DNA from: Catajapyx aquilonaris
Taxonomy: Eukaryota
Direction: 5' to 3'
NCBI GenBank assembly: GCA_000934665.2
Contig: KZ538396.1
Coordinates: forward strand, 56,681 to 76,680
DNA length: 20,000 nt
Each line of letters opens with the position of its first letter. Position 1 is the stretch's first letter. Below the pieces are notes generated by a model that saw only the letters and a program-made list of their open reading frames with translations, was not told the origin of the DNA and searched no databases. Made by a program: the position numbers and the translations under genes. Shown here in pieces: positions 2,291-20,000 of the stretch.

Positions 2291-2377
2291 GCAAGCACTT
2301 GTTTTGATGCATTTTGTATGTCTTCAGGTTTTCATACCACAGCACAGTGTGGCCAAACGCGTGAATTCTGGGACAAT

Positions 2378-2746
2378 GGCCCCCACTCCACACGTATTTG
2401 TCACTATGTGGTCACGACTTTCCTCTGATTTTCAAGACAAAAAGTATCGAATTTCACTTTGAATGACACTCCAAACGACCGACTAGATTCCCCAGTTATA
2501 GATTCACTTTGCTCTAAGTACATATAATTGCACCTTTTATCGAGGTAGCATACTGCTACCCTGACAAATGTGACCTCCTTTTGGAAAAATGTGGACTCAT
2601 GTGGACTTGAAATGAAGTGAGTCTATAACCGGGGAGTCTAGTCTTTCATTTAATGTGTGATTCGAAGTGAAATTTGGTGTAATCAGCAACTTTTCATTTT
2701 TAAAAGGAGAGGATGGATGTTATGACAAATGCGCATAATGGAAGCC
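2378..2746. mobile_element. Old degenerate foldback MITE (possibly PIF/Harbinger type)
   Basis: 2481-2510 and 2614-2643 are inverted repeats (26/30). Further inverted blocks: aatttcactttgaatgacac / gtgtgattcgaagtgaaatt, and cgtatttgtca / tgacaaatgcg. Ends GGC...GCC; boundaries approximate. Confidence 0.6.
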
Positions 2747-2965
2747 TCAACAGAAGAACAACTGCCACTGGCATTTCGAGGTCACATTCAAATTGCTAAG
2801 TGAGAGAAAGGGAAGACCTTGCGGTGGGTGGGGGGGAAATGATCAAGGTCTATTTCATGTGAAACTGAGATGTTGCAATTTCAAACTTTGAAGGCCCACC
2901 ACAAATCTTGTGTACATCCCAACGTTGCTTTGAAAGTCATTATTAATGGTACATACCTTGGGGTA

Positions 2966-3175
2966 CACCTGCGAGCATAAAGTTGGAGACGCTGCGGGCC
3001 TTCTCTGACCTTTCTTTATCCGACTCAAATTAATTGCCTCTTTTTGGAACGAGTTGGCTGTTTCAGGCCTGTGTTCGTGTATTTATAACAGTATATTTGA
3101 TGCCGTAATAGCCGAGATTGGAAGAGCACCTTGCCGAAGGTGAGGGCCTGACGTCTCCAACTTTATGCTCGGGTG
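2966..3175. mobile_element. Tc1/mariner-type MITE (210 bp)
   Basis: TIRs CACCTGCGAGCATAAAGTTGGAGACG and CGTCTCCAACTTTATGCTCGGGTG, flanked by TA at 2964-2965 and 3176-3177. Confidence 0.85.
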
Positions 3176-3572
3176 TACATGCAACAATTAAAACCAACAT
3201 TGTTGTTGCATAGTTTTTTGTTTTTTTTGTATTACCCTGTGATAAGGGCCATGGGCCCTGTTAGGGGGAAAGGGGAGATTCCGCAGGGAGGGCACTCTTA
3301 ACCCAGATATGCCTGGCAGACAGGCGTGGTTCTGTCACACAGGGCATGGCCTCCATTCGTCTTAGCGGTGGTCGAATGACGCGGAAAAGACACAAAAACC
3401 GAAAGAATCCGTCAGTTGACGTACTTTCAATTAGCACACCCCTGATCTTAATTGACACTCCCTCCTCAGCGAAGGAATATATTTCGTGTGCAGGTGTGTT
3501 GTGGACGAAAACCTTTCTTTGAGTCCAGCAAGGAACATTTCCCCCAAATGACTTGTTCTCAGTAACATCATT

Positions 3573-3911
3573 CAGGGCCGGCCCTAGGTGGGTGCGGGGC
3601 CTAGGGCAAGAACTAAATGCGGGGCCTATTCTCAGTGAGTGAATTTCTGTACAACAATCCAACAATTTTGTTGGCTGACTTTCTATAATAACGTACAACT
3701 GAGGGGCGTATACAGAAAATTTTAGGGTGCGGGCCCATAAGCAGTAGAGGGAGGGGAGGAAGCCCGCCGCAGGTGAAAATTTTTTGAAGTTCAAGGTCAC
3801 ACGAGCTTAGTTGAATGTAGTAGATTTGAATGGGTGTGTATTGATGAAATACTCGTTCAAAATGTCATTAACTCTTGACTTACCGTATTTTATGAGCTCT
3901 CTCTCTCTCTT

Positions 3912-3967
<56 letters not shown>

Positions 3968-4036
3968 CGCGGGGCCCCCCAGAAGCGCGGGGCTCCGGGC
4001 GGTCGCCCGGACTGCCCACCCCTAAGGCCGGCTCTG
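3573..4036. mobile_element. hAT-type non-autonomous element (464 bp)
   Basis: TIRs CAGGGCCGGCCCTAGG / CCTAAGGCCGGCTCTG (14/16). Perfect 8-bp TSD ACATCATT at 3565-3572 and 4037-4044. Repeated subterminal GCGGGGCC motifs. Confidence 0.92.
3897..3965. repeat. (CT)n microsatellite inside the hAT element
   Basis: About 69 nt of CT repeats with two TT interruptions. Confidence 0.98.
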
Positions 4037-4417
4037 ACATCATTATTTTCCCTGCGTATCCCTTGCTACTGATGTGTAAGCAGGCAGAAGAGACCCGTCG
4101 CTGGGTCGTCCGCGTCATTCACTCAATTTGTAAACAGTGGCAACAATCAAAGCACTCTCCATGTGCCGATGTTTGAACTGGCCCGCCGGACGGGGTTTCC
4201 AGGTAACGGGCTACAATATAAGCAGCTTAGGCCGAATTTGTCAATAACTAAAACGACAAAAAAGTTTGATCACCCTGTATATAGGACATCTAATTTTGCA
4301 ATAAGTGATTGAAACAAAAATGTGAAATTTTGAAAAATGGCTTCTACACCTCCACTACAGAGGGTTCTTCCAAAGTATTACTAAATACTTGCACAAATGG
4401 CTTCTCTGGTCTCAGGA

Positions 4418-5976
4418 GGGTATAACGGAAACGTGTTCATTGCGGAATTTTAGAGTCGCGTGCTATTCAGATATGTATACAGGTTTCGCTGTATATAAAT
4501 ATACAGTGAAACCCGTCCACAAAGGACCCTGTGTATAATGGAAACTTGCCTATTGCGAAATTTTTCTGGTAACTGGTGTATGAAATTTACACAATTTCCG
4601 CTATATTCGACACGGAAATTGTGTACGTTCCATACGCCAGTTACCAGAAAAAATCCGCAGTATGCAAGTTTTCGTTATCCACAGGGTCCGTTGTGGACAG
4701 GTTTTACTTCCCATCTAGCTATATTCAGTGAAACCTGTGCATATCGGAAGTGCACGGGACTCGAATATTCCGCAATGAACAAGTTTCCGTTATACAGGGT
4801 GGTTGGTAAATGGCGCACAAGCTTCTGGTAGCGAGATTCCTTGTGAAAAACCAGTATATGGAAGTGAAGGTCATATTGCTCTACGAGGCCTGGTTAGGGC
4901 TCACGAGGCCTCCAAAGTTTGGGCCAAATAATGACGTCACATCCGCCCCCGAAATTCAAACACTACCGTATCGCTACTGTCTGTGATTTCGTTGCCAGGG
5001 ATTGCCATGTTGACATCCCCCACATTTCCACACAACAATGGTACCGTATAAACTGGCCGGGACGTTGCCAGGCATTGCCATACCTTCGTCGCCGCGTGCC
5101 TGGCAACGTCCATATGAGTTTATACGGTTCCATTGTTTGGTGAACATGTGGGGAATGTCAACATGGAAATCCCTGGCAACGAAATCGCAGACAGTAGCGA
5201 TACGGTAGTGTTTGAATTTCGCGGGCGGATGTGACGTCATGATTTGGCCCAAACTTTGGAGGCCTCGTGAGCCCTAACCAGGCCTCGTAGAGCAATATGA
5301 CCTTCACTTCCATATACTGGTTTTTCACAACGAATCTCGCTACCTGAAGCTTGTGCGCCATTTACCGACCACCCTGTATACAAGGTCCCTTATGGACAGG
5401 TTTTACTTCCCATCTAGCTATATCAGTGAAATCTGCGCATGGCGTAAATGCATGGGATGATAAAATTTTCCGTAATGAGCAAGTTTCCGCTATATTCGAC
5501 GCAGAGATCGTGTACTCTCCATACGCCCGTTACCAGAAAAATTCCGCTATAGGCAAGTTTCCGTTATGTTCAGGGTCCGTTATATGGACAAGATTCACTT
5601 CAGATCAATATGTAGTGAAACCTGTCCATAACGTAGCCTGCCCTGAATGTTACAAAAACTTGTCCATTGCAGAATTTTTCCGGGAACGGGCGTATGCATA
5701 GGACATAAATACTGTGTCGAATATAGCGGAAACGGCTGATATACCGTACTAGGCCTTATATATCCAACATCGTTAAATGGTTCAAAAACAGCACCACTTT
5801 TTTTTCTCCCCCCACTCTCTACCACCTCTGCCCACAATGCTTTGCGGCATTGCAGCATTCACTTCCACTCTTACCCGTTTGGTGCTGATGACTAGGAAAA
5901 TCGTCATTTTCAGTGGAAACTTGTCAATTACGATTTTTAGGGGACCGTGCTATTCTGCTATACACAGGTTTCACTG
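4418..5976. mobile_element. Array of five related pogo/Tigger-like MITE units
   Basis: Units at about 4418-4491, 4504-4709, 4726-5408 (interrupted), 5424-5600 and 5613-5976. Each is bounded by CAGTGAAACCTGT-like termini or their reverse complement, and they share GGAAACTTG / CAAGTTTCCG motifs. TA flanks at 4492-4493, 4502-4503 and 5977-5978. Confidence 0.75.
4795..5376. mobile_element. Near-perfect foldback (palindromic) Tc1/mariner-type MITE, 582 bp
   Basis: Arms 4795-5074 and 5097-5376 (280 bp each, no net indel) around a 22-nt loop. Termini CAGGGTGGTYGGTAAATGGCGCACAAGCTTC with a TA duplication. Removing it restores the host MITE motif aagtttccgttatacaaggtccc. Confidence 0.95.
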
Positions 5977-6546
5977 TATCCAAAAGCGAATGTTTGTATG
6001 CATGTATGTTTGATTGTACATGGCAGTGGGTTACCATAGCTACGGTGGTTGCCGGGTAACCCTCGTTTTAAAAATAGAGATTCATAAAAATTCAGTTCGA
6101 CAAAACGCACAAAATCCGCACACATACAGTAGCCTAGAGTACCGGTGCTTGACTTGCCGGTCCATTTGTGGTGCATTTGCCGAGTGTCCCTCATAGGGGA
6201 CACTTGGTTTCAATGCCACCCTCAGACAAGGAATGTAAAAAATATGCCTATATCTCCACATCGACATCATCATTCATAAGTTTTCTAAGTATTACAAACA
6301 AAAAATTACTCATAATGCTAATCAACATTCGATAATTAATTACTAATCGTCTTCGGAACGTGGAGGTGCAGCCATTGTTTCCTGCGTTAAAATTCGAACA
6401 CCTCTATCTTAAAAATCTGCAGCAATATTGAGCAGGTTTGAACTTGCATCTTTAGCTGGGACTCTCCTGAAGCCCCCGTGACTACTGCCAGCTCTTTAGC
6501 AGCAGAAGAACCTGCGCAAAAAAATTAAAATGTAACAACTGTGCAG

Positions 6547-6789
6547 GTGTCCCCTATAGGGCACACTCAGCATATCTGGGTTAATCGGTTTGTAGTCATT
6601 TCTGACCCTCTTAAATACCAGACCTTTTCTCCTGGCCCTGGGAAGAGAAGGGAGTGAAATTCTTCCTGGACATGTCGGGTGAAAATCAGAAAAAGACCCG
6701 ACCAAGCAGAGGTGACGGGCACGGGATTTGAAGCCCGGACCTCCTGCTTGGCTGGCCAGTAGCATAGCCACTAAACCACTATGCCCCCC
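6547..6789 (-). mobile_element. tRNA-Gly-like-derived SINE
   Basis: Minus strand GCATAGTGGTTTAGTGG (A box)...GCCAGCCAAGCAGGAGGTCCGGGCTTCAAATCCCG (degenerate B box), resembling tRNA-Gly(GCC). About 170 nt of non-tRNA body follows, ending in the stem-loop GTGTGCCCTATAGGGGACAC. Confidence 0.8.
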
Positions 6790-6800
6790 ATCATAGGTTT

Positions 6801-7060
6801 TTATTTATCAACATCAGTAGGCCTACCATATGTGGCAAAGGGCAGGTCCACATAAAAATGTCGATAACCCTGGGGTATCAATGGCATGAGGCTCTGCAAA
6901 TCATTGTATTTCACTTGCGAAATTGGCAGTCGCCCTGGATATATCTCACGAGACTGACCAGAAGGTGCTACATTCCTCTTCACAACAATCGACAATCCCC
7001 ATGGCCCATCAAGTGTTCCTGTGAAAGATAAGCTTGGGTTCATTTTCAAGGATCTTCCAC
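6801..7060 (-). pseudogene. C-terminal fragment of a DNA transposase (Sola/DUF7869-like)
   Basis: ORF 6801-7169 ends ...EIYPGRLPISQVKYNDLQSLMPLIPQGYRHFYVDLPF. This fits the Y-x3-LPIS-x2-K-x2-DL-x2-L-x3-IP-x2-Y-x2-FY-x2-L tail I recognise from invertebrate Sola-like transposases. The N-terminal part of the ORF is not recognisable. Confidence 0.6.
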
Positions 7061-7463
7061 TCTCTTCTTTTCTGAATAGGAAATGATCATTTGGGGACAG
7101 TTTTTGTAGGTATGAATTACGCAAAACAGATTCGGCTTTCGATGTGCATGTGCAAAAATCGTGGCCCAATCGAAAGGAACAAACATTTCAGAACTCTGGT
7201 TTATCAAGCCAAAATTTTTGTCACACTACTCTATGTAACTGTGACCTCTAGTGGGAAATGTCACTTGGGTTGTAAGAAACCTATGCACAAAGAACTGTAG
7301 CATGATACATGCGGCCTCTGATGATTGTGTAGTTTTTATTTTGCCCCACATATGCAAAAACAGTTGACTGTCGCCGAGTGCAAGGGTGGACGTTGATCAT
7401 TTTCCTCCCAATGGTGGTGGACGTTGATTGTTCTTCCACAATGCCAAATATTTCAGGGCCTGC

Positions 7464-7762
7464 GGGGAGGTGCGGTGGCTGAGCTGGTAACATCTGAGCT
7501 TGCTGATCGAAAGGTCCCGGGTTCGATCCCCGCCGAGGATTTCACTTTCGGCTCGGAGGGTCTCTGATCCGCGCCTTGGAGGTGTCTGGCAACCTAACCT
7601 CCTGGGGACTGCACATGGCCCAGTTTGAGACATTGCACTTGCACCCGTGTCCCCTCCCCAAAAATCTCCATTCCCTTCCCCATGTCCCTTTCTCCCTTGC
7701 ACGGTGTTTCGAAGAAAATTCAGAAAATAGTGATGGAAAAATGCTGGTGTTCCACCCCCCTA
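7464..7762 (+). mobile_element. tRNA-derived SINE, family B copy 1 (3' truncated)
   Basis: A box TGGCTGAGCTGG, B box GGTTCGATCC; colinear with the copy at 8082 through the body. Confidence 0.85.
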
Positions 7763-8081
7763 AATGAGCAATGATTCTGCCAATGCGCATTTGGCAGTGA
7801 CCTTTCTTCCATGACCATTCCAAAAAGGTGGCAGGCGAACATTCGATTTGAGTACCTGCCTGGTGTAAAACCAGTCTCAATTGAACCTACCAAAGCGATT
7901 TTTGTTGTTGTTCAGGCATTACGTTCTTTCATTAGGGACGATTTGACACAGCTGCCAAGTTAGTTTTTTTCCATTTTTGTACAAACTATCCCGCATTTGG
8001 ACACACTGTGCACAGGTAATAAAAAATTCAAGGGATGTAGGCAGGTCTGATGCCCCTAACAAGAATAATTTATTCAATTTC

Positions 8082-8407
8082 GGGGAGGTGTAGACGGCCG
8101 AGATGGTAACGTCTCAGATTGCTGAGTGAAAGGCCCCAGGTTCGATCCCCGCCTGGGGAGTTTTCCTTTCACCTGCATCAGGAGGGTCTCTGACCTGCAC
8201 GTTGGAGGTGTCTGGCAACCAAACCTCCTGGGGAACAGCACATGACCGGTTTAACGACATTGCACTTGACCCTCCCCAAAAATCCCTATCCTTTCCCAAT
8301 GTCTGTTTCCTTGCACCGGAGAACGAAATATATAGAAAACTGATGGGTGTGCCACCCCCCTATAGATCCTGTAAGGGACATCATGGGGGTTTTTTTTAAC
8401 AAAAAAA
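8082..8407 (+). mobile_element. tRNA-derived SINE, family B copy 2
   Basis: A box CGGCCGAGATGG, B box GGTTCGATCC, same body as the 7464 copy. 3' stem-loop CCCCC...GGGGG and A-rich tail. Possible short TSD TCAATT (8074-8079 / 8408-8413). Confidence 0.85.
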
Positions 8408-9025: not shown

Positions 9026-9377
9026 TCACAGCTTGATTATCTCAAACATGGATGAGTCAATCCAACTACATGGATAATTCCCTTCCGAACTGCTGGTTTT
9101 TCGTGTTCTGAGTTGACAAAAGGCCCATGAGCCTCTCCCTTTGTTGCGAGCAGCTCGACCTGGGTTGAGTAATACTGTATGGGAGTCGAGTTTTCCCAGG
9201 TATGGGCTCAAGTCGGATGGCAACACCAAAATGTCAGGAGTGACATCCATCAGGCAGTGCTTCTCCCACAGACCCCAGTCCATGCTTATTGTTTCTGATG
9301 GAGGTACCAGTGGATACCAGTTGCGCTGGTGCAACAGGTGTCGACCAAGACGGGCCAGTCTATCTTCCTGTTGACCC
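9026..9377 (-). CDS. POLA2: DNA polymerase alpha subunit B, last coding exon
   Basis: Acceptor ttgttcacag|, phase 2. Reads GQQEDRLARLGRHLLHQRNWYPLVPPSE...VTPDILVLPSDL...LLNPGRAARNKGRGSW...EIIKL*, matching the POLA2 motifs DRxxR, QRSYYPLYPP, TPDVLIIPSEL and VNPGRL. Confidence 0.95.
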
Positions 9378-9616
9378 CTGTGAACAAGGATTTCAATTTA
9401 AAATGCTGCTATGTTACATCTACAAAACTTCTGTTGTTATCCATAACATACACTAGAAGTGACTAAAGAGGTCGCTTCCCAACCATGTTTTGTCTTTTCA
9501 AAAGCATAAGTAGAAGGGCTCATCTGATTTTAGCCATTCACCATTACCACTACACTATTAAATCATTTGTATTCAAGACTAATTCAGTCCTTCAAAAAGT
9601 TTCTTAGATTGAACTT

Positions 9617-10883: not shown

Positions 10884-11199
10884 ATCAGCTTTTTCATGAC
10901 TGTGTACAGGCCATCAGCCTGATTCACAAGCAGTTCACACAAGGATTTGGACCATGAAAAGCCTTTATTGCTTGTGACTGAAAACCACACCAGTTATGAA
11001 TGACCTCGGCATTTACATGCAAATTCAAGTACTGCGTCTTTCCTCCTTAGTAATGTTAAGCATTTCATCCATCCAGATGGAAAGTGAACCAAATCCAACT
11101 TAGCCATACAGTCAATGAATATATCCACAATCTTTACCATGATTATGCTGATTCCTTGCTTTCCATCAAGAACATTTGGAGGTGCACATCATAACTAAC

Positions 11200-11903
11200 C
11201 TGGATATCTCTGCTTGGCTGAGATGGAACAGGATGTCCGAGGAAGTACACCCGACAACAAGTCCTCCAACCTTGACTACACATGGGTCGGGTAGCATCCT
11301 AACACGTGGATGAGACTTCTTGGTGGTGGTCATTGGTGGTGGTGTTGGATACACTGGTGAAGACGATAAAGGATCCCGCCCACTAGCCACCATCAGCACT
11401 TGGGTCCTTGTTTCCTCTGCTGCTGTGCCCAAGGCAGTAACAATGCTATCTAGTATGTCCTGGAAACTCTCACCCATCTTGTCAATGACACCTGCCTCCA
11501 AGCTCTCAGGCACACAGGGACCTAGCAGCAGCAGGACCTGAGGGCGTCGTTGCTTCATTTCTTCCACAAGGACATCAAGTGCATCCATGGCCAGAGTGTC
11601 CACAGCACAGAAGGGTCCTGAGGCTACCATCATGTCAAAGCTGCAGGACAGTTTTGATGTCTGAACAGGTCGAAGCCAGCTCGATTCCAGCCTGGTGACT
11701 GTCATCTTGGTACCATTCAGGTTGGTCCCCTGAGCCACGACAACCTGACCAGGAAACACAGACACTGGGCCATTGAGTGTGGATACATCCAGCTCTATTT
11801 GAGATGCTCCGCTCCACTCCTGAATCCCTTCCAGGTACAGGCTGGATAAAGAAAGAGGGCAGTCTGTGTGGGCACTGATGCGTCCAGCTACAGTCTCAAC
11901 TTC
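11200..11903 (-). CDS. POLA2: DNA polymerase alpha subunit B, 704-bp exon (OB fold and PDE-like domain)
   Basis: Acceptor tgtctttccag|, donor |gttagt. Contains GRI, LYLEG, SVFPGQVVVAQGTN, VASGPF, PQVLLLLGP, PVYPTPP, LPDPC and SSDILFHLSQAEIS, the POLA2/Pol12 motifs in order. Confidence 0.97.
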
Positions 11904-12566
11904 CTGGAAAGACAATATTACCAATTTATTGTGTTTACCTATTACCTGTATAGATTTCTTTTTAGCTACGGATAAGATGTACCTACCACCCATTTTAAAG
12001 GGGTTAATTGCACTTAGTACTGAATGTCTCCCATGACTTATGTGGATGGGCAAAATTAATTGCACATTTGAAGTCTACATGTAAAATTAAAATTATTTTG
12101 TCAGAAAAGTTGTGAAATTATTTACAGGTGTACGTGAATTGCTGATATGGAAGAGTGGATGAGACTTCATTCCCCCTACTTAGAAGTTAGTTTTCAGTTG
12201 GCATATTTCCTACAGGTAAAATGCAAACCTCACCCAATACCAGCATTCCCTGCTTTTTCCAGCATTCAGGTATAGCCACAAAACATGCATTTTCATCTGG
12301 TCACCCCGACTTGACCAAAATTCCAGTATTTGCAGGGTTATACAATAACAGTGAAATTATTCTGACAGTGAGCAGGACATCTCTTCAAAAATACATATAT
12401 TATAATGTATTCAGCATTACAAAGTACTGACATCAAGTCTTTAATTGTTAATTATAACGTGTTGAATCATTGTTGTCTAGCATGATGCCAGTACTATTCA
12501 ATGGCTAAATACATCATCAGTTGAAGTGTGTCAGGTGTTGGCATTTCACAGTAATAAGTATGCTAA

Positions 12567-12704: not shown

Positions 12705-14159
12705 ATTAATTTATCAACATAAAACTGCCTTGCTCATTGGATTTAAATGTGTGGTCTCATTTGTAACACACTATTACTACTGACCCAGTGATGTTACACT
12801 ACCAGTTGCATTGAGGTTTACACTTTACATAATGTACTTTACATGCAGTGGAAGATGGAATGGTCAAATCTGTTCGAGGAACAGAATCGAGAAAATAAAT
12901 GAACTTGGCCATTTCTCACAGAACTTGCCAAATGATACCCAGGCAGTGGGCAATTAACACTCGACATTTTATACATGCCCAGAACTTTAATTCAGTCAAG
13001 TCCATTTATACAACTTAAATGAGTCGCAACTCACAATTTAGACCCATCTCAGTTGCAAATATCAACTGGCAGGCAGGTTCATGCATACAAACAACTCTGA
13101 AGATGCACTGGAAACTCGTTGCTGGGATGAAACTATCTTCTTCCAGAAAGGTTAATATACTGTGCTCCAGGAGCTTATATGGGCAATCACAAAATGAATA
13201 GGGGGTTGCAATCAACCAAAGTCATAAGTGGGATAGGCAGCTTTGCTTACACCCACAACATTTGAGACCTGATTTCAAAATCTTACCTCCTAGTCTTGTT
13301 TCACAGAGCCATATTTTGTCATCCACCACACTTAATAGTCGCTTCACATGCTGCATTGGTTCTTATCACTTGATTAACATTTCTCCAGACAATTCATTGC
13401 TCTTTAATGGGAGTTTCAAGTTATGTAAAATTCCCAATGAAATCCCTCATTATGTCAATGTATGGCTATAGTAGTGCTCTTAACAACAGAAAACGCTTTA
13501 TTCCTTTTCAACCGCATTGCAGTGAATATGCACTTTTACATGAAATAAATATCCACTTTCACAATCTCACACCCTACTTCGAAAGCACAAGTTACTTTGA
13601 TGCCACAAATCCAGCATCACAATGCTTTCAACTCCAACATGTCTACTTGCAACCAGCACCCATTGGAGGCAGTGGTGCCTGGTGAAACCATCTTTCTGCC
13701 TCTCCCCCTACTGTACCATGTCACAGGAGAAATTATCATGAGAAAGCAATTTTTATTATGGGCTATTGGCAGCAAACTTTTGGGTCTATCAAGTCCACTT
13801 CACAAAAGATATACCCAGAGTTAATTCATGTTAGATATTAGCCACAACTCTTGGCAGATAGAATCACTTAATAAATTATGCATAACTCCTAATTACTAAG
13901 CAATTCTTGTCAGACATGAAATGGTTTTTCTTCAAAACCTACTATGCAGATTAAGCAACACATTTAGTTACCTCCCCTTCTACTCAAAAATGCATCAACA
14001 TCTAAAAATGTGCAGCTCTTGTTCCATCAATCCTAGTGAAAATGTAGGGATTAAATGCATGTGATCCCATTGCTTACTAAATGACACCGTCACATGATTA
14101 CATTCAATGATGTTAATTTGTTACACTATTGCAGCAGTGTGATGGATAACGCTTCTTAA

Positions 14160-14630
14160 CCCTTAACTACGTAGGTGGAGCCTGAGAGGCTCCAAGCACT
14201 ATTTAAACGCATGTAACTTTTTCATCGAATTTTATTTTCCCCTGTCCTTCCGTGACTTTGTCAGACAAACCTTCCTAAGCATGAAAAGGAAAGAAAAAAA
14301 ATTTTAGTCCCTATTGTTCGGTTTAAAAAAATTCGTAACGAGGAACAGGTCCCTCCTGGACTCTATACTGGCTCTACCTATGCAGGTGAAGACTGAGCGG
14401 ATCAAGCATGATGTAACCTTTTAATTAAGAATTTTTCCCTGTCGGAATATGGTGACTCAGCGTGTGATTTTTACGTTATCGGAAGCCTAATGATCTGAAC
14501 TGCACTTTCTGTATGTGAAAAGTCCAATATAACAATTTAGTTGATAAGCAGAAATTTAAATATACCGTTGGAGCCTCTCAGGCTCCACCTACGTAGTTAA
14601 AGGTGTTTCACCCACCTACGTAGTTAAGGG
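14160..14630. mobile_element. piggyBac-type MITE (471 bp)
   Basis: TTAA on both sides (14156-14159, 14631-14634). Perfect 19-bp TIR CCCTTAACTACGTAGGTGG and subterminal palindrome GGAGCCTGAGAGGCTCC. Confidence 0.93.
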
Positions 14631-14916
14631 TTAAGTACTCTTACTTTATTTACACCAGTCATTCTCTGGATTCTCTGGGTATCCCTCTGGATTTTAAAAA
14701 TGACTACTCATTACACCACTCGCAGTACTGTTCAATGAACCCTAATGATTACTTGTAGAAAGAAATGTTGCATATAAAAGGCCAATTCCATACATAAAAC
14801 AAAATGCAAAAGGGAATGGCAAGTACATATCAGTTGCAATTGGAAAGAACCTGCTCAGAAACGTGTCTCCTGGCCAAAAAAAAAAGTTCTATACTTGAAA
14901 GCATTTTTCTTCTTAC

Positions 14917-15444: not shown

Positions 15445-15952
15445 CAGTGATGGGGAGTATCTAGATACAAGTATCTAGATACCAAAAGGAGTATCTTTTA
15501 TCTTATCTAGATAATTTGAAGTTTGTGTATCTATACTTGTATCTAGCTACTTTACACATAGTATCTGATGGCATCACCAGATACATTTCCAGATACTTTT
15601 TAGGCGATTTTTCTGATGAAAACGTGATTCCCCTACATAGAAATAAATGCAGTAATGCACCGTTCCGCATTCTTAATCTACTCCGAACTTTGGTAAACGT
15701 CTGTTTCAATCCACAGTGAACCAGAGTATAATATGTTATTGAGGATGACAAATGTCAAAAGAAATATATTCGCGTGTGCCTGCGAATCAGTATATCGTAT
15801 ATGGAGTTGTATGGACGGTATCTGAAATAGTATCTTATCTATTATCTAGATACAATGTTGAACGAGTATCTGGTACAGTATCTAGATGGAAATATTTCCA
15901 AGTATCTATTATCTTATCTAGATACTTTTTGAAAGTATCTTCCCCATCACTG
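15445..15952. mobile_element. hAT-type non-autonomous element (508 bp)
   Basis: TIR CAGTGATGGGGA / TCCCCATCACTG. Perfect 8-bp TSD GACATTAG at 15437-15444 and 15953-15960. Subterminal arrays of GTATCT/AGATAC. Confidence 0.93.
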
Positions 15953-17049: not shown

Positions 17050-18700
17050 AATTTTAATGGTCAAGGATGCGAGGGNGTAATCCCCTCCCCCTCGACTCTA
17101 CCTTCTTATTCCCGAGTCTGTCCAAAATGGTTCCCTGAGGGAGACGCCGACCTTGGTGAGGCCGTTGCCTCTCTTCCCAGGGGAACAAAGAAGGGCGGGA
17201 AAACGGTGGGTGGGTGGGTGGCATAAAGGTGGGGGCGACGTGAGTATGGGGGAGGAGTGGGTGTAAAGCCGATGGATCAGACTCGAGTAATGCCACATGC
17301 ACCCCTATAGCCTATCACAGCTAATCCTTCGCATTGCCAAACTGCGCCCGAGGAATCATACACCCCCCCNGCTCGGAACCACCTTAAAAAAAAAAAAAGC
17401 TACCTGAGAGTCACGTGAACCCAACAGACCAATGGCGTCCACAGTCCGAGAGAGGCAATGAACCCGCGCCCTGGGGCCAACATCCCCTTCAACTGACTTT
17501 TTCCATTTGAATTTCCACCGCCCAGATTTAAATCCCGACCGTTACGAAAAGTATCCGTTTCGCTGCGCCCCTGCCCCCCTCAAGACCCCCAGGAATGTCA
17601 ACTATTCCCCCACCCCCAAAGTGTCACCCCCCATTTTACCTGTCCGGCCGGGGAAAACCCACTAGTTGAAATAAACCCTCACGTCTTTAGATGAGTGTGG
17701 ATCTAGTCATGAGATCTGAATGTCACACGCACTAGAGGCTCACCCATCGGTAGACGCAGAGGTTAGGGGGGTTTGTTGAAATATTCATCATCTCCAGGTG
17801 GGGGCCAATCCGCCGACTAGTCAACCCGTCCGTTGATGAGTGTGGATCTAGTCATGAGATCGAATACTACATGCACCAGTTCCGCACCCACCCACGGCCG
17901 ACCTGTTGGCTGCTCCTCCGGGTTCCACATCCGCAGCGCCTATCATATACAAATCATGGGAGACTACAACGCCCGAATCAAACCCGCCACCCTTTTTTTT
18001 TTGCCTCCCCCCCATTCCGTGAGAAGGTGGGGCGCCCAAATGGAGCCACCACCCATGTGGGTCAAAACGACAATGTTTCACATCCCCAAACCAGTCAAGG
18101 TCTCATANTCGATTTCTACACCTCCGCGACATTGAAAGTGCCAATGACCCTACCGAATGAAAAATTTCCCTCCACCAGGATTACACAAGCACACGATTAC
18201 GAAGTTTCACCAACAATGTATCCCGACGGCTTGAAGCGGAACGATGGAAACGCCGCCACTTACGACCCCTACCTGTCCAGAAGCACTGCTGCCGTGGTAG
18301 CTACAAGAAAAGTGCACTGCTCCCCCTTCTTCCTCCGCAAGACTCCGCGTCTCGTCTCTTTTCTGGCGGGCAAGCCGAGATTCCCCTCACCCCTCGCANC
18401 CCCCCCACACCCTTTCCATTTGCTCCCCGTACCCCTCAAACCTCAGCAGGCCACAATGCTCGCTGGCCTTGAAATGCCCCCCTACCACATCGTATACCCC
18501 CACCTATTTTCTTACCTGCCCCAGGGAAACATCCTCCCCCTCTACCCTTACCCCCCATCCGCCACCCCACCAACCACCTTCCAAAAGCTTCTTCCCTCAC
18601 CTGGCCAAACCGCCGCCTTCGTTTTCAGACCCCTGTGACGTCACTTGCCCCTTCCCACCACCCAAACAACTGATGTTCCTTCAACTTCTTCAACTGACAC
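17050..18700. other. Probable low-quality or gap-fill sequence inside a POLA2 intron
   Basis: Isolated n bases at 17076, 17370, 18108 and 18399. Abrupt shift to C-rich, homopolymer-run, CpG-containing sequence unlike the flanks. Confidence 0.7.
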
Positions 18701-19497: not shown

Positions 19498-19668
19498 CTG
19501 GTACAGGTAATGTTAAGGAACACATTAGGACCATTCACCTGGCAATGGCATTCCACAGCAAGATGTGTTTTCCATTGTTATTGAGTCAACAATTAATAAT
19601 GGAAAACATGATCCTGCCATGAAAGGGAATGTCATTATCAATATTATTATTCCACTCATAAAGGATAC
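19498..19668 (-). other. U12-type (minor spliceosome) GT-AG intron, 171 bp
   Basis: 5' splice site GTATCCTTT (19668-19660). Branch site TTCCTTAAC (19520-19512), followed by 14 nt ending in CAG; no polypyrimidine tract. Confidence 0.92.
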
Positions 19669-19891
19669 TTGTCCTGCACATTGTGTGCATAGAGGGTACC
19701 GAATCCACTGCCATTCCTGTCTCTCTTGGGAGCTGTAGGTGTCTTGTGTTGTGTGTCCTTCTCAACAACGGTCAATATGTCAAGTGTAACTAGACCTGCT
19801 TCTGTTGCACCACTGTGTGACGCCAAAGCTGCCATAACAGCATACACTAATTCCTCGGGAGTCATCCTATTTATGGCACATATTTCTAGTC
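19669..19891 (-). CDS. POLA2: DNA polymerase alpha subunit B, N-terminal domain exon (exon 1 outside the window)
   Basis: Acceptor ttttacatttcag|, phase 1. Reads LEICAINRMTPEELVYAVMAALASHSGATEAGLVTLDILTVVEKD..., similar to human VELCVQYGQNEEGMVGELIAF...LTSEILNSFEHE. The six exons total 1718 nt in one open frame. Confidence 0.88.
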
Positions 19892-19903
19892 CTGAAATGT
19901 AAA

Positions 19904-19924
19904 ATATATATATATATATATATA
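19904..19924. repeat. (AT)n microsatellite
   Basis: About 10 AT units just upstream of the POLA2 acceptor at 19892. Confidence 0.95.
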
Positions 19925-20000
19925 CAAAATTACAAAAAATTAAAAAGCATCCATACACAACCCTGAGTATACATTAGGCTTTCTTGCAGATTGCCTACAC

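Follow-up and report, generated by a model that had tools for sequence, protein, structure and literature searches.

A 5,668-bp element at positions 2343-8010 of a 20,000-nucleotide stretch of Catajapyx aquilonaris DNA (assembly GCA_000934665.2, contig KZ538396.1, positions 56,681 to 76,680; the whole stretch is called the window below) is probably a decayed, likely single-copy, non-autonomous DNA transposon of the Transib superfamily. Transib transposons are related to the enzyme that assembles antibody genes, and the element shows traits of that group: a 5-bp target site duplication, inverted ends beginning with 5'-CAC, and a palindromic, GC-leaning target of the CCANTGG type. The ends and the 5-bp duplication are real and beyond chance. 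The find is an ordinary one for an invertebrate genome; Transib elements occur widely among invertebrates, as do derivatives of them without genes, and their RSS-like ends (RSS, recombination signal sequence) were described in 2005.

Ends of the element and the target site

The features at the two ends are as follows.

2338-2342, no strand: left target site duplication CACAG, read off the sequence
2343-2364, plus strand: left terminal inverted repeat CACAGTGTGGCCAAACGCGTGA, with the heptamer CACAGTG at 2343-2349
2373-2381, plus strand: left nonamer-like block ACAATGGCC, 23 bp after the heptamer, 6/9 to ACAAAAACC
7972-7980, minus strand: right nonamer-like block ACAAAAATG, 23 bp after the heptamer, 7/9 to the RSS and Transib nonamers
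7989-8010, minus strand: right terminal inverted repeat TCCCGCATTTGGACACACTGTG, with the heptamer at 8004-8010
8011-8015, no strand: right target site duplication CACAG, read off the sequence

The left junction reads ttcatac-cacag-CACAGTGTGGCCAAACGCGTGA (2331-2364) and the right junction TCCCGCATTTGGACACACTGTG-cacag-gtaat (7989-8020), with the CACAG duplications directly abutting both ends. The inverted ends are identical at 19 of 22 positions, the mismatches being at positions 10, 16 and 20, and both tips are CACAGTG, which matches the RSS heptamer at 7/7 positions and the Transib heptamer CACAATG at 6/7. A preliminary description of this DNA had reported these ends, the heptamer at both tips and the exact duplication, and its coordinates and letters were confirmed. 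Comparison of the two ends past 22 nt revealed no further end-to-end similarity, and inspection of both junctions revealed no matching 3-, 4-, 7- or 8-bp flanks that would give another boundary.

The heptamer by itself is unremarkable, with four CACAGTG matches in the window against 3.54 expected, and the first nine nucleotides of the ends (CACA-N-TGTG) are self-palindromic, so that the orientation signal is carried by positions 10-22, where 10 of 13 match. The whole window was scanned for pairs of 22-nt inverted ends lying 100-10,000 bp apart, with at least 19 matches, the first seven perfect, and an exact 5-bp flanking repeat; the single pair found was that of the 2343-8010 element. In 60 first-order Markov simulations of 20-kb sequences, end pairs without the duplication arose at a mean of 0.13 per sequence and pairs with the duplication not at all (0/60). 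A 19-nt degenerate pattern of the end, with up to three mismatches allowed, matched two places in the window, both of them ends of the element, and two matches were given by none of 200 shuffles. A second pair of CACAGTG heptamers, at 15712 and 19817, was rejected because it has neither end similarity nor a duplication. Self-BLAST of the window returned three palindromic matches only.

The junctions are likewise real in the reads. For this comparison contigs were aligned at 80% likeness from the only four sequencing runs found to hold the stretch, which share one sample and one study; the runs are possibly the assembly's own source and so do not count as independent support. The left junction lies within one contig spanning 2000-2509 without differences in all four runs, and the right junction within a contig spanning 7714-8146 in three runs and 7714-8115 in the fourth, likewise without differences. 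The junction contigs have about single-copy depth (12-34 across runs, and 13.6 for the X2 right-junction contig), the terminal 31-mers are shared with no other locus, no branch points to an empty allele, and no loose end falls at 2343 or 8010 among the 24 listed.

The rebuilt empty site is ttcataC-CACAG-Gtaat, and before insertion it would read ttcatacCACAGgtaat. The target CCACAGG contained in it fits the motif CCANTGG of the Drosophila elements hopper and transib2 at five of six fixed positions, and an equally good fit occurs in only 96 of the 19,994 7-mers of the window (0.48%). The duplication CACAG agrees with the older Transib duplication consensus CABHG, and the target cCACAGg is one base off the target cCASTGg of Anopheles Transib-N1. 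Around the central C of the duplication, complementary pairs are found at seven of the nine distances from 3 to 11 (TTTT..TACC-ACA-GGTA..AAAA), a symmetry reached at only 0.17% of window positions. Farther out, the flanks show no significant inverted or direct similarity, and their interpretation as arms of a larger palindromic element was discarded, the local alignment score being 15 against a shuffle null mean of 15.3. The symmetry is therefore that of a palindromic target and not of a longer inverted repeat.

The RSS consensus consists of CACAGTG, a spacer and the nonamer ACAAAAACC, and the consensus of Transib ends of CACAATG, a spacer of about 22-23 bp and then AAAAAAATC, with RSS23-like ends on both sides in most Transib families (PMC1131882). 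In the right nonamer-like block of the present element nonamer positions 5-6 are A. A score of at least 7, as in that block, is reached at 3.3% of single window positions, and for a random pair of window positions to score 7 and 6 with the same spacer and consensus, P was about 0.0015 (292 of 200,000 draws).

Assignment to Transib and competing readings

A 5-bp duplication distinguishes Transib among the eukaryotic cut-and-paste superfamilies (PMC1131882); HzTransib in vitro makes invariably 5-bp duplications (PMC4840297), and hopper insertions have them in 532 of 533 cases (PMC3276498 Table 3). Taken with the length of the duplication and the CAC heptamer, the target fit, the target symmetry and the nonamer-like blocks point in the direction of Transib. 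The element had previously been placed in a joint Transib/RAG superfamily. The Transib half of that placement is strengthened by the target motif, its symmetry and the nonamer-like block at 23 bp, while the other half fares poorly, as the ends depart from the consensus of RAG-like (RAGL) elements.

Several results weigh against a Transib assignment. Positions 5-6 of the left nonamer-like block are not A, so that the conserved pair is missing there, and HzTransib ends show little nonamer similarity (PMC4840297), which means that the nonamer is no firm or universal mark of Transib. The tests of target fit, symmetry and nonamer were picked post hoc and concern a single insertion. No transposase was found in the element by Pfam searches of the interior frames. 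The 20-kb window holds no further copy of the ends (19-nt pattern, up to three mismatches), and the junction contigs, being unbranched and single-copy, indicate that no near-identical sister copy exists in the one sample. An empty allele had been proposed as something the reads might reveal, and the reads of that sample returned the filled locus only, the empty-site joint from 2342 to 8011 being absent among the 15 joints listed. With regard to copy number, autonomous Transibs typically have one or few copies per animal genome (PMC4411706), and a low-copy family here would therefore not be odd.

If the element is a Transib derivative, the known biology of the family suggests how it may have arrived. 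A Transib transposase of the RAG1-core DDE type, encoded elsewhere, would have bound both ends, recognising in each the CACAGTG heptamer, the 23-bp spacer and the A-rich nonamer-like block, and excision would have proceeded by the nick-hairpin reaction. Insertion would then have occurred by a 5-bp staggered attack on the palindromic taCC-A-C-A-GGta, with duplication of CACAG. Other elements landed inside later, and what is left is now immobile debris; no sign of function was seen for the element.

A bolder proposal takes the heptamer, the 23-bp spacer and the nonamer as functional, and the element as the relic of a lineage whose Transib/RAG1-like transposase, in a non-deuterostome host, read the nonamer at RSS23 spacing via a nonamer-binding domain. 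We give this little credence. If it were true, bipartite end recognition of the RSS type would exist also outside the deuterostome RAGL-A/RAG branch, and an autonomous partner with a nonamer-binding domain would be predicted in the genome. The element would have a bearing on the evolution of RSS recognition only if a nonamer-reading transposase carries these ends.

Among the alternatives to Transib, the one that survives best, although it is unlikely, is a cut-and-paste element of another or undescribed superfamily that left a 5-bp duplication by happenstance. The length of the duplication was observed once only, and a superfamily can never be assigned with certainty from one copy that lacks a transposase. 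Against this stands the specific fit of the target motif to Transib, and the particular superfamilies that could be considered do not agree with the ends. CACTA/Chapaev-type elements make 2-4-bp duplications, but the 3- and 4-bp flanks of the element do not match. A long terminal repeat (LTR) retrotransposon could make a duplication of 4-6 bp, but the ends here are inverted, 22 nt long and of the form CA...TG, with no direct repeat across them. A hAT element would be recognised by a duplication of 8 bp and by G as the third base of its ends (PMC1131882 Figure S7 legend), whereas the present element has C there and a 5-bp duplication.

The next alternative is that the element is non-autonomous and was moved by a RAG-like (RAG1L-RAG2L) rather than a plain Transib transposase. 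RAGL transposons also have 5-bp duplications and CAC ends, non-autonomous RAGL elements are on record (PMC7204232), and the RAGL-A ends of the acorn worm, with an RSS-like heptamer and an AT-rich nonamer-like block, recall the present layout (bioRxiv 10.1101/2023.08.20.553239). The details of the ends, however, make this quite improbable. The protostome RAGL consensus CACTWMCAAACKTYKBB (PMC7204232) does not fit them, position 4 being A and not T, and the ends CACAGTGTGG/TCCAAA have TGG and TGT at positions 8-10 in place of the AAA (TR2) of RAGL. In RAGL-A the A-rich TR2 adjoins the heptamer and the spacers have a 10-bp asymmetry (bioRxiv 10.1101/2023.08.20.553239), whereas both spacers here are 23 bp. 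Convergent RAG1L and RAG2L genes would be expected of such a transposon, and no protein domain was found within the element. The window also carries mir-279, which is a protostome family. RAGL-A is reported from hemichordates and echinoderms, and jawed-vertebrate RAG belongs to family A as well (bioRxiv 10.1101/2023.08.20.553239).

Hardly credible, finally, is the idea that no single transposon exists here, and that either two low-complexity sites rich in CA/TG are paired by chance or two separate elements contribute one outer end each: the self-palindromic CA/TG-type first 9 nt, the expected frequency of the heptamer, the lack of anything shared past 22 nt and an interior that is a patchwork of unrelated repeats would suit it, but positions 10-22 match at 10/13, an exact 5-bp repeat abuts both ends, the simulations gave 0/60, and a single duplication would not be common to elements that inserted independently.

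Interior, related copies and neighbouring sequence

The preliminary description had seen neither a RAG1-core nor a Transib frame in the element, and this was borne out, as the 72 stop-to-stop frames of 45 aa or more in 2343-8010 all lacked a Pfam match above the cut-off. The sole sub-threshold Pfam match inside the element is a translated (CT)n run, and the longest low-copy frame (6804-7187, minus strand) had one weak match (E = 3.2e-4) in 1.84 billion proteins, to a protein without a Pfam family. Most of the interior is high-copy repeat. Six of the 28 depth bins of the element, about 1.3 kb in total, lie below a summed word depth of 1,000 and the others range from about 1,300 to about 230,000, compared with a summed word depth of about 26-34 for single-copy sequence; these values add up contigs and cannot be read as copy numbers. 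The element's own low-copy DNA thus amounts to about 1.3 kb at most, too little to hold a transposase gene, which takes about 2.1 kb (about 700 aa). The masking of the element by nested repeats, proposed earlier, was likewise upheld; these are mostly high-copy, and some have target duplications of their own. At least two TA-flanked miniature inverted-repeat transposable elements (MITEs), one hAT-type MITE and two tRNA-derived short interspersed elements (SINEs) are nested inside, and the length of 5.7 kb is due to nested insertions. The features of the interior are as follows.

About 2396-2731, no strand: foldback or MITE-like inverted repeat, arms 2450-2538 and 2586-2674 clearly alike, multi-contig depth
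About 2943-3191, no strand: MITE-like inverted repeat, high depth, loose end at 3171
3573-4036, no strand: hAT-type MITE, ends CAGGGCCGGCCCTAGG and CAGAGCCGGCCTTAGG (14/16), 8-bp duplication ACATCATT
4423-4792, no strand: MITE, ends TAACGGAAAC..., TA-flanked, with partial family copies up to about 5980
4795-5376, no strand: Tc1/mariner-type foldback, 284-nt arms 94% complementary, TA duplication
About 6500-6789, minus strand: tRNA-derived SINE, head at 6789, 3' limit approximate, tRNA-like sequence, very high depth
7477-7770, plus strand: tRNA-derived SINE, 3' limit approximate, high depth

Two of these insertions can be followed in contigs from other loci. The hAT-type MITE, which includes a (CT)n run at 3897-3965, is skipped by contigs from other host-repeat copies (joint from 3564 to 4037, eight shared letters), and the Tc1/mariner-type foldback is bypassed by contigs from elsewhere (joint from 4792 to 5377). 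The SINE at 7477-7770 is 84-91% alike to a copy outside the element at 8096-8268. An extension of the 2396-2731 foldback to the left end, by which the left nonamer would be foreign DNA, was rejected with a score of 13 against a null mean of 13.3.

The outside SINE copy spans 8096-8400 on the plus strand. Sharp 5' boundaries of SINEs are marked at 6789 and at 8096 by 53-67 loose ends in each run (53-66 at 6789), and the summed depth of the tRNA-SINE is about 2-3 x 10^5 against about 30 for single-copy sequence in the one sample. The region 6824-7461 is a low-copy repeat, covered by single-copy-depth contigs from elsewhere (288, 260 and 282 nt) at roughly 87-90% identity, and it could represent either the element's own body in a second, diverged copy or one more nested repeat of low copy number. 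A joint from 7819 to 7966, seen in a single contig and with 23 letters on its shorter side, might reflect another, diverged copy of the right-hand terminal region, but is too weak to use. Metagenome matches to the 19-nt end pattern were obtained at five loci of 59-63% G+C that have nothing in common with the element beyond the 19-mer; by a rough estimate this is about the number expected by chance, and the loci were rejected as relatives.

Beside the element, on the minus strand, lies the gene POLA2 for DNA polymerase alpha subunit B, while no gene was found in the window to the left of the element.

19656-19973 (weak, below cut-off), 11166-12074 and 9026-9397, minus strand: Pfam-supported exons of POLA2

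Of nine POLA2 homologues, two (P0003 and P0004) can be aligned right through to the C-terminal residue, at 9394-9029, and alignment of the others breaks off 17-55 residues earlier. This places the POLA2 stop near 9026, so that 1 kb or more separates the 3' end of POLA2 from the element. For annotation, the value of the element is that it accounts for a 5.7-kb repeat nest beside POLA2, and its ends are an exact probe with which the full assembly could be searched for the family and for an autonomous Transib or RAG1-like gene.

The POLA2 product is 30-36% identical to its best homologues, which are from arthropods and nematodes, and one of its exons is unusually long (909 bp). The host lineage seems to be poorly represented in protein collections. 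Two tandem hairpins of the mir-279 family, 145 bp apart, are located on the minus strand at 17676-17762 and 17821-17906, in a GC-rich stretch of a POLA2 intron and on the same strand as POLA2; they score 54.2 and 57.5 bits, the gathering score being 56. Four single N's occur near them, at 17076, 17370, 18108 and 18399. A young-looking piggyBac-type MITE occupies 14160-14630 between TTAA at 14156-14159 and TTAA at 14631-14634; its ends CCCTTAACTACGTAGGTGG... are 97-100% identical, with part of the right end present twice (14568-14604 and 14612-14630).

Comparison with known systems

With the RAGL-B and RAGL-A transposons (ProtoRAG; protostome RAGL, PMC7204232; PflRAGL-A, bioRxiv 10.1101/2023.08.20.553239) the element has in common the 5-bp duplication, the CAC tips and the existence of non-autonomous derivatives; it differs from them in having no TR2/AAA at positions 8-10, A instead of T at position 4 and no RAG1L or RAG2L genes inside. 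Compared with the vertebrate V(D)J RSS23, its heptamer is identical to the CACAGTG consensus, and at the right end ACAAAAATG follows after exactly 23 bp, matches ACAAAAACC at 7/9 positions and has A at positions 5 and 6. An RSS23, however, is a recombination signal beside a gene segment, whereas here a target duplication adjoins the end of a transposon, and the left nonamer of the element is poor. Since both ends are of the 23 type, they do not form a 12/23 pair.

The closest systems are the non-autonomous Transib families TransibN1-N3_AG of Anopheles, TransibN1_DM/DP and hopper of Drosophila, and TransibN1_SP of the sea urchin (Kapitonov and Jurka 2005, PMC1131882). Unlike those families, the element is 5.7 kb long through nested insertions, and it appears to be single-copy and decayed. 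The comparison with the named families covers the heptamer, the spacer, the nonamer consensus and the target. Like them, the element has a 5-bp duplication, a CAC start, a CACA(A/G)TG heptamer and no transposase gene, a nonamer-like A-rich block about 22-23 bp on at both ends, though a poor one at the left, and a GC-leaning palindromic target of the CCANTGG / cCASTGg type.

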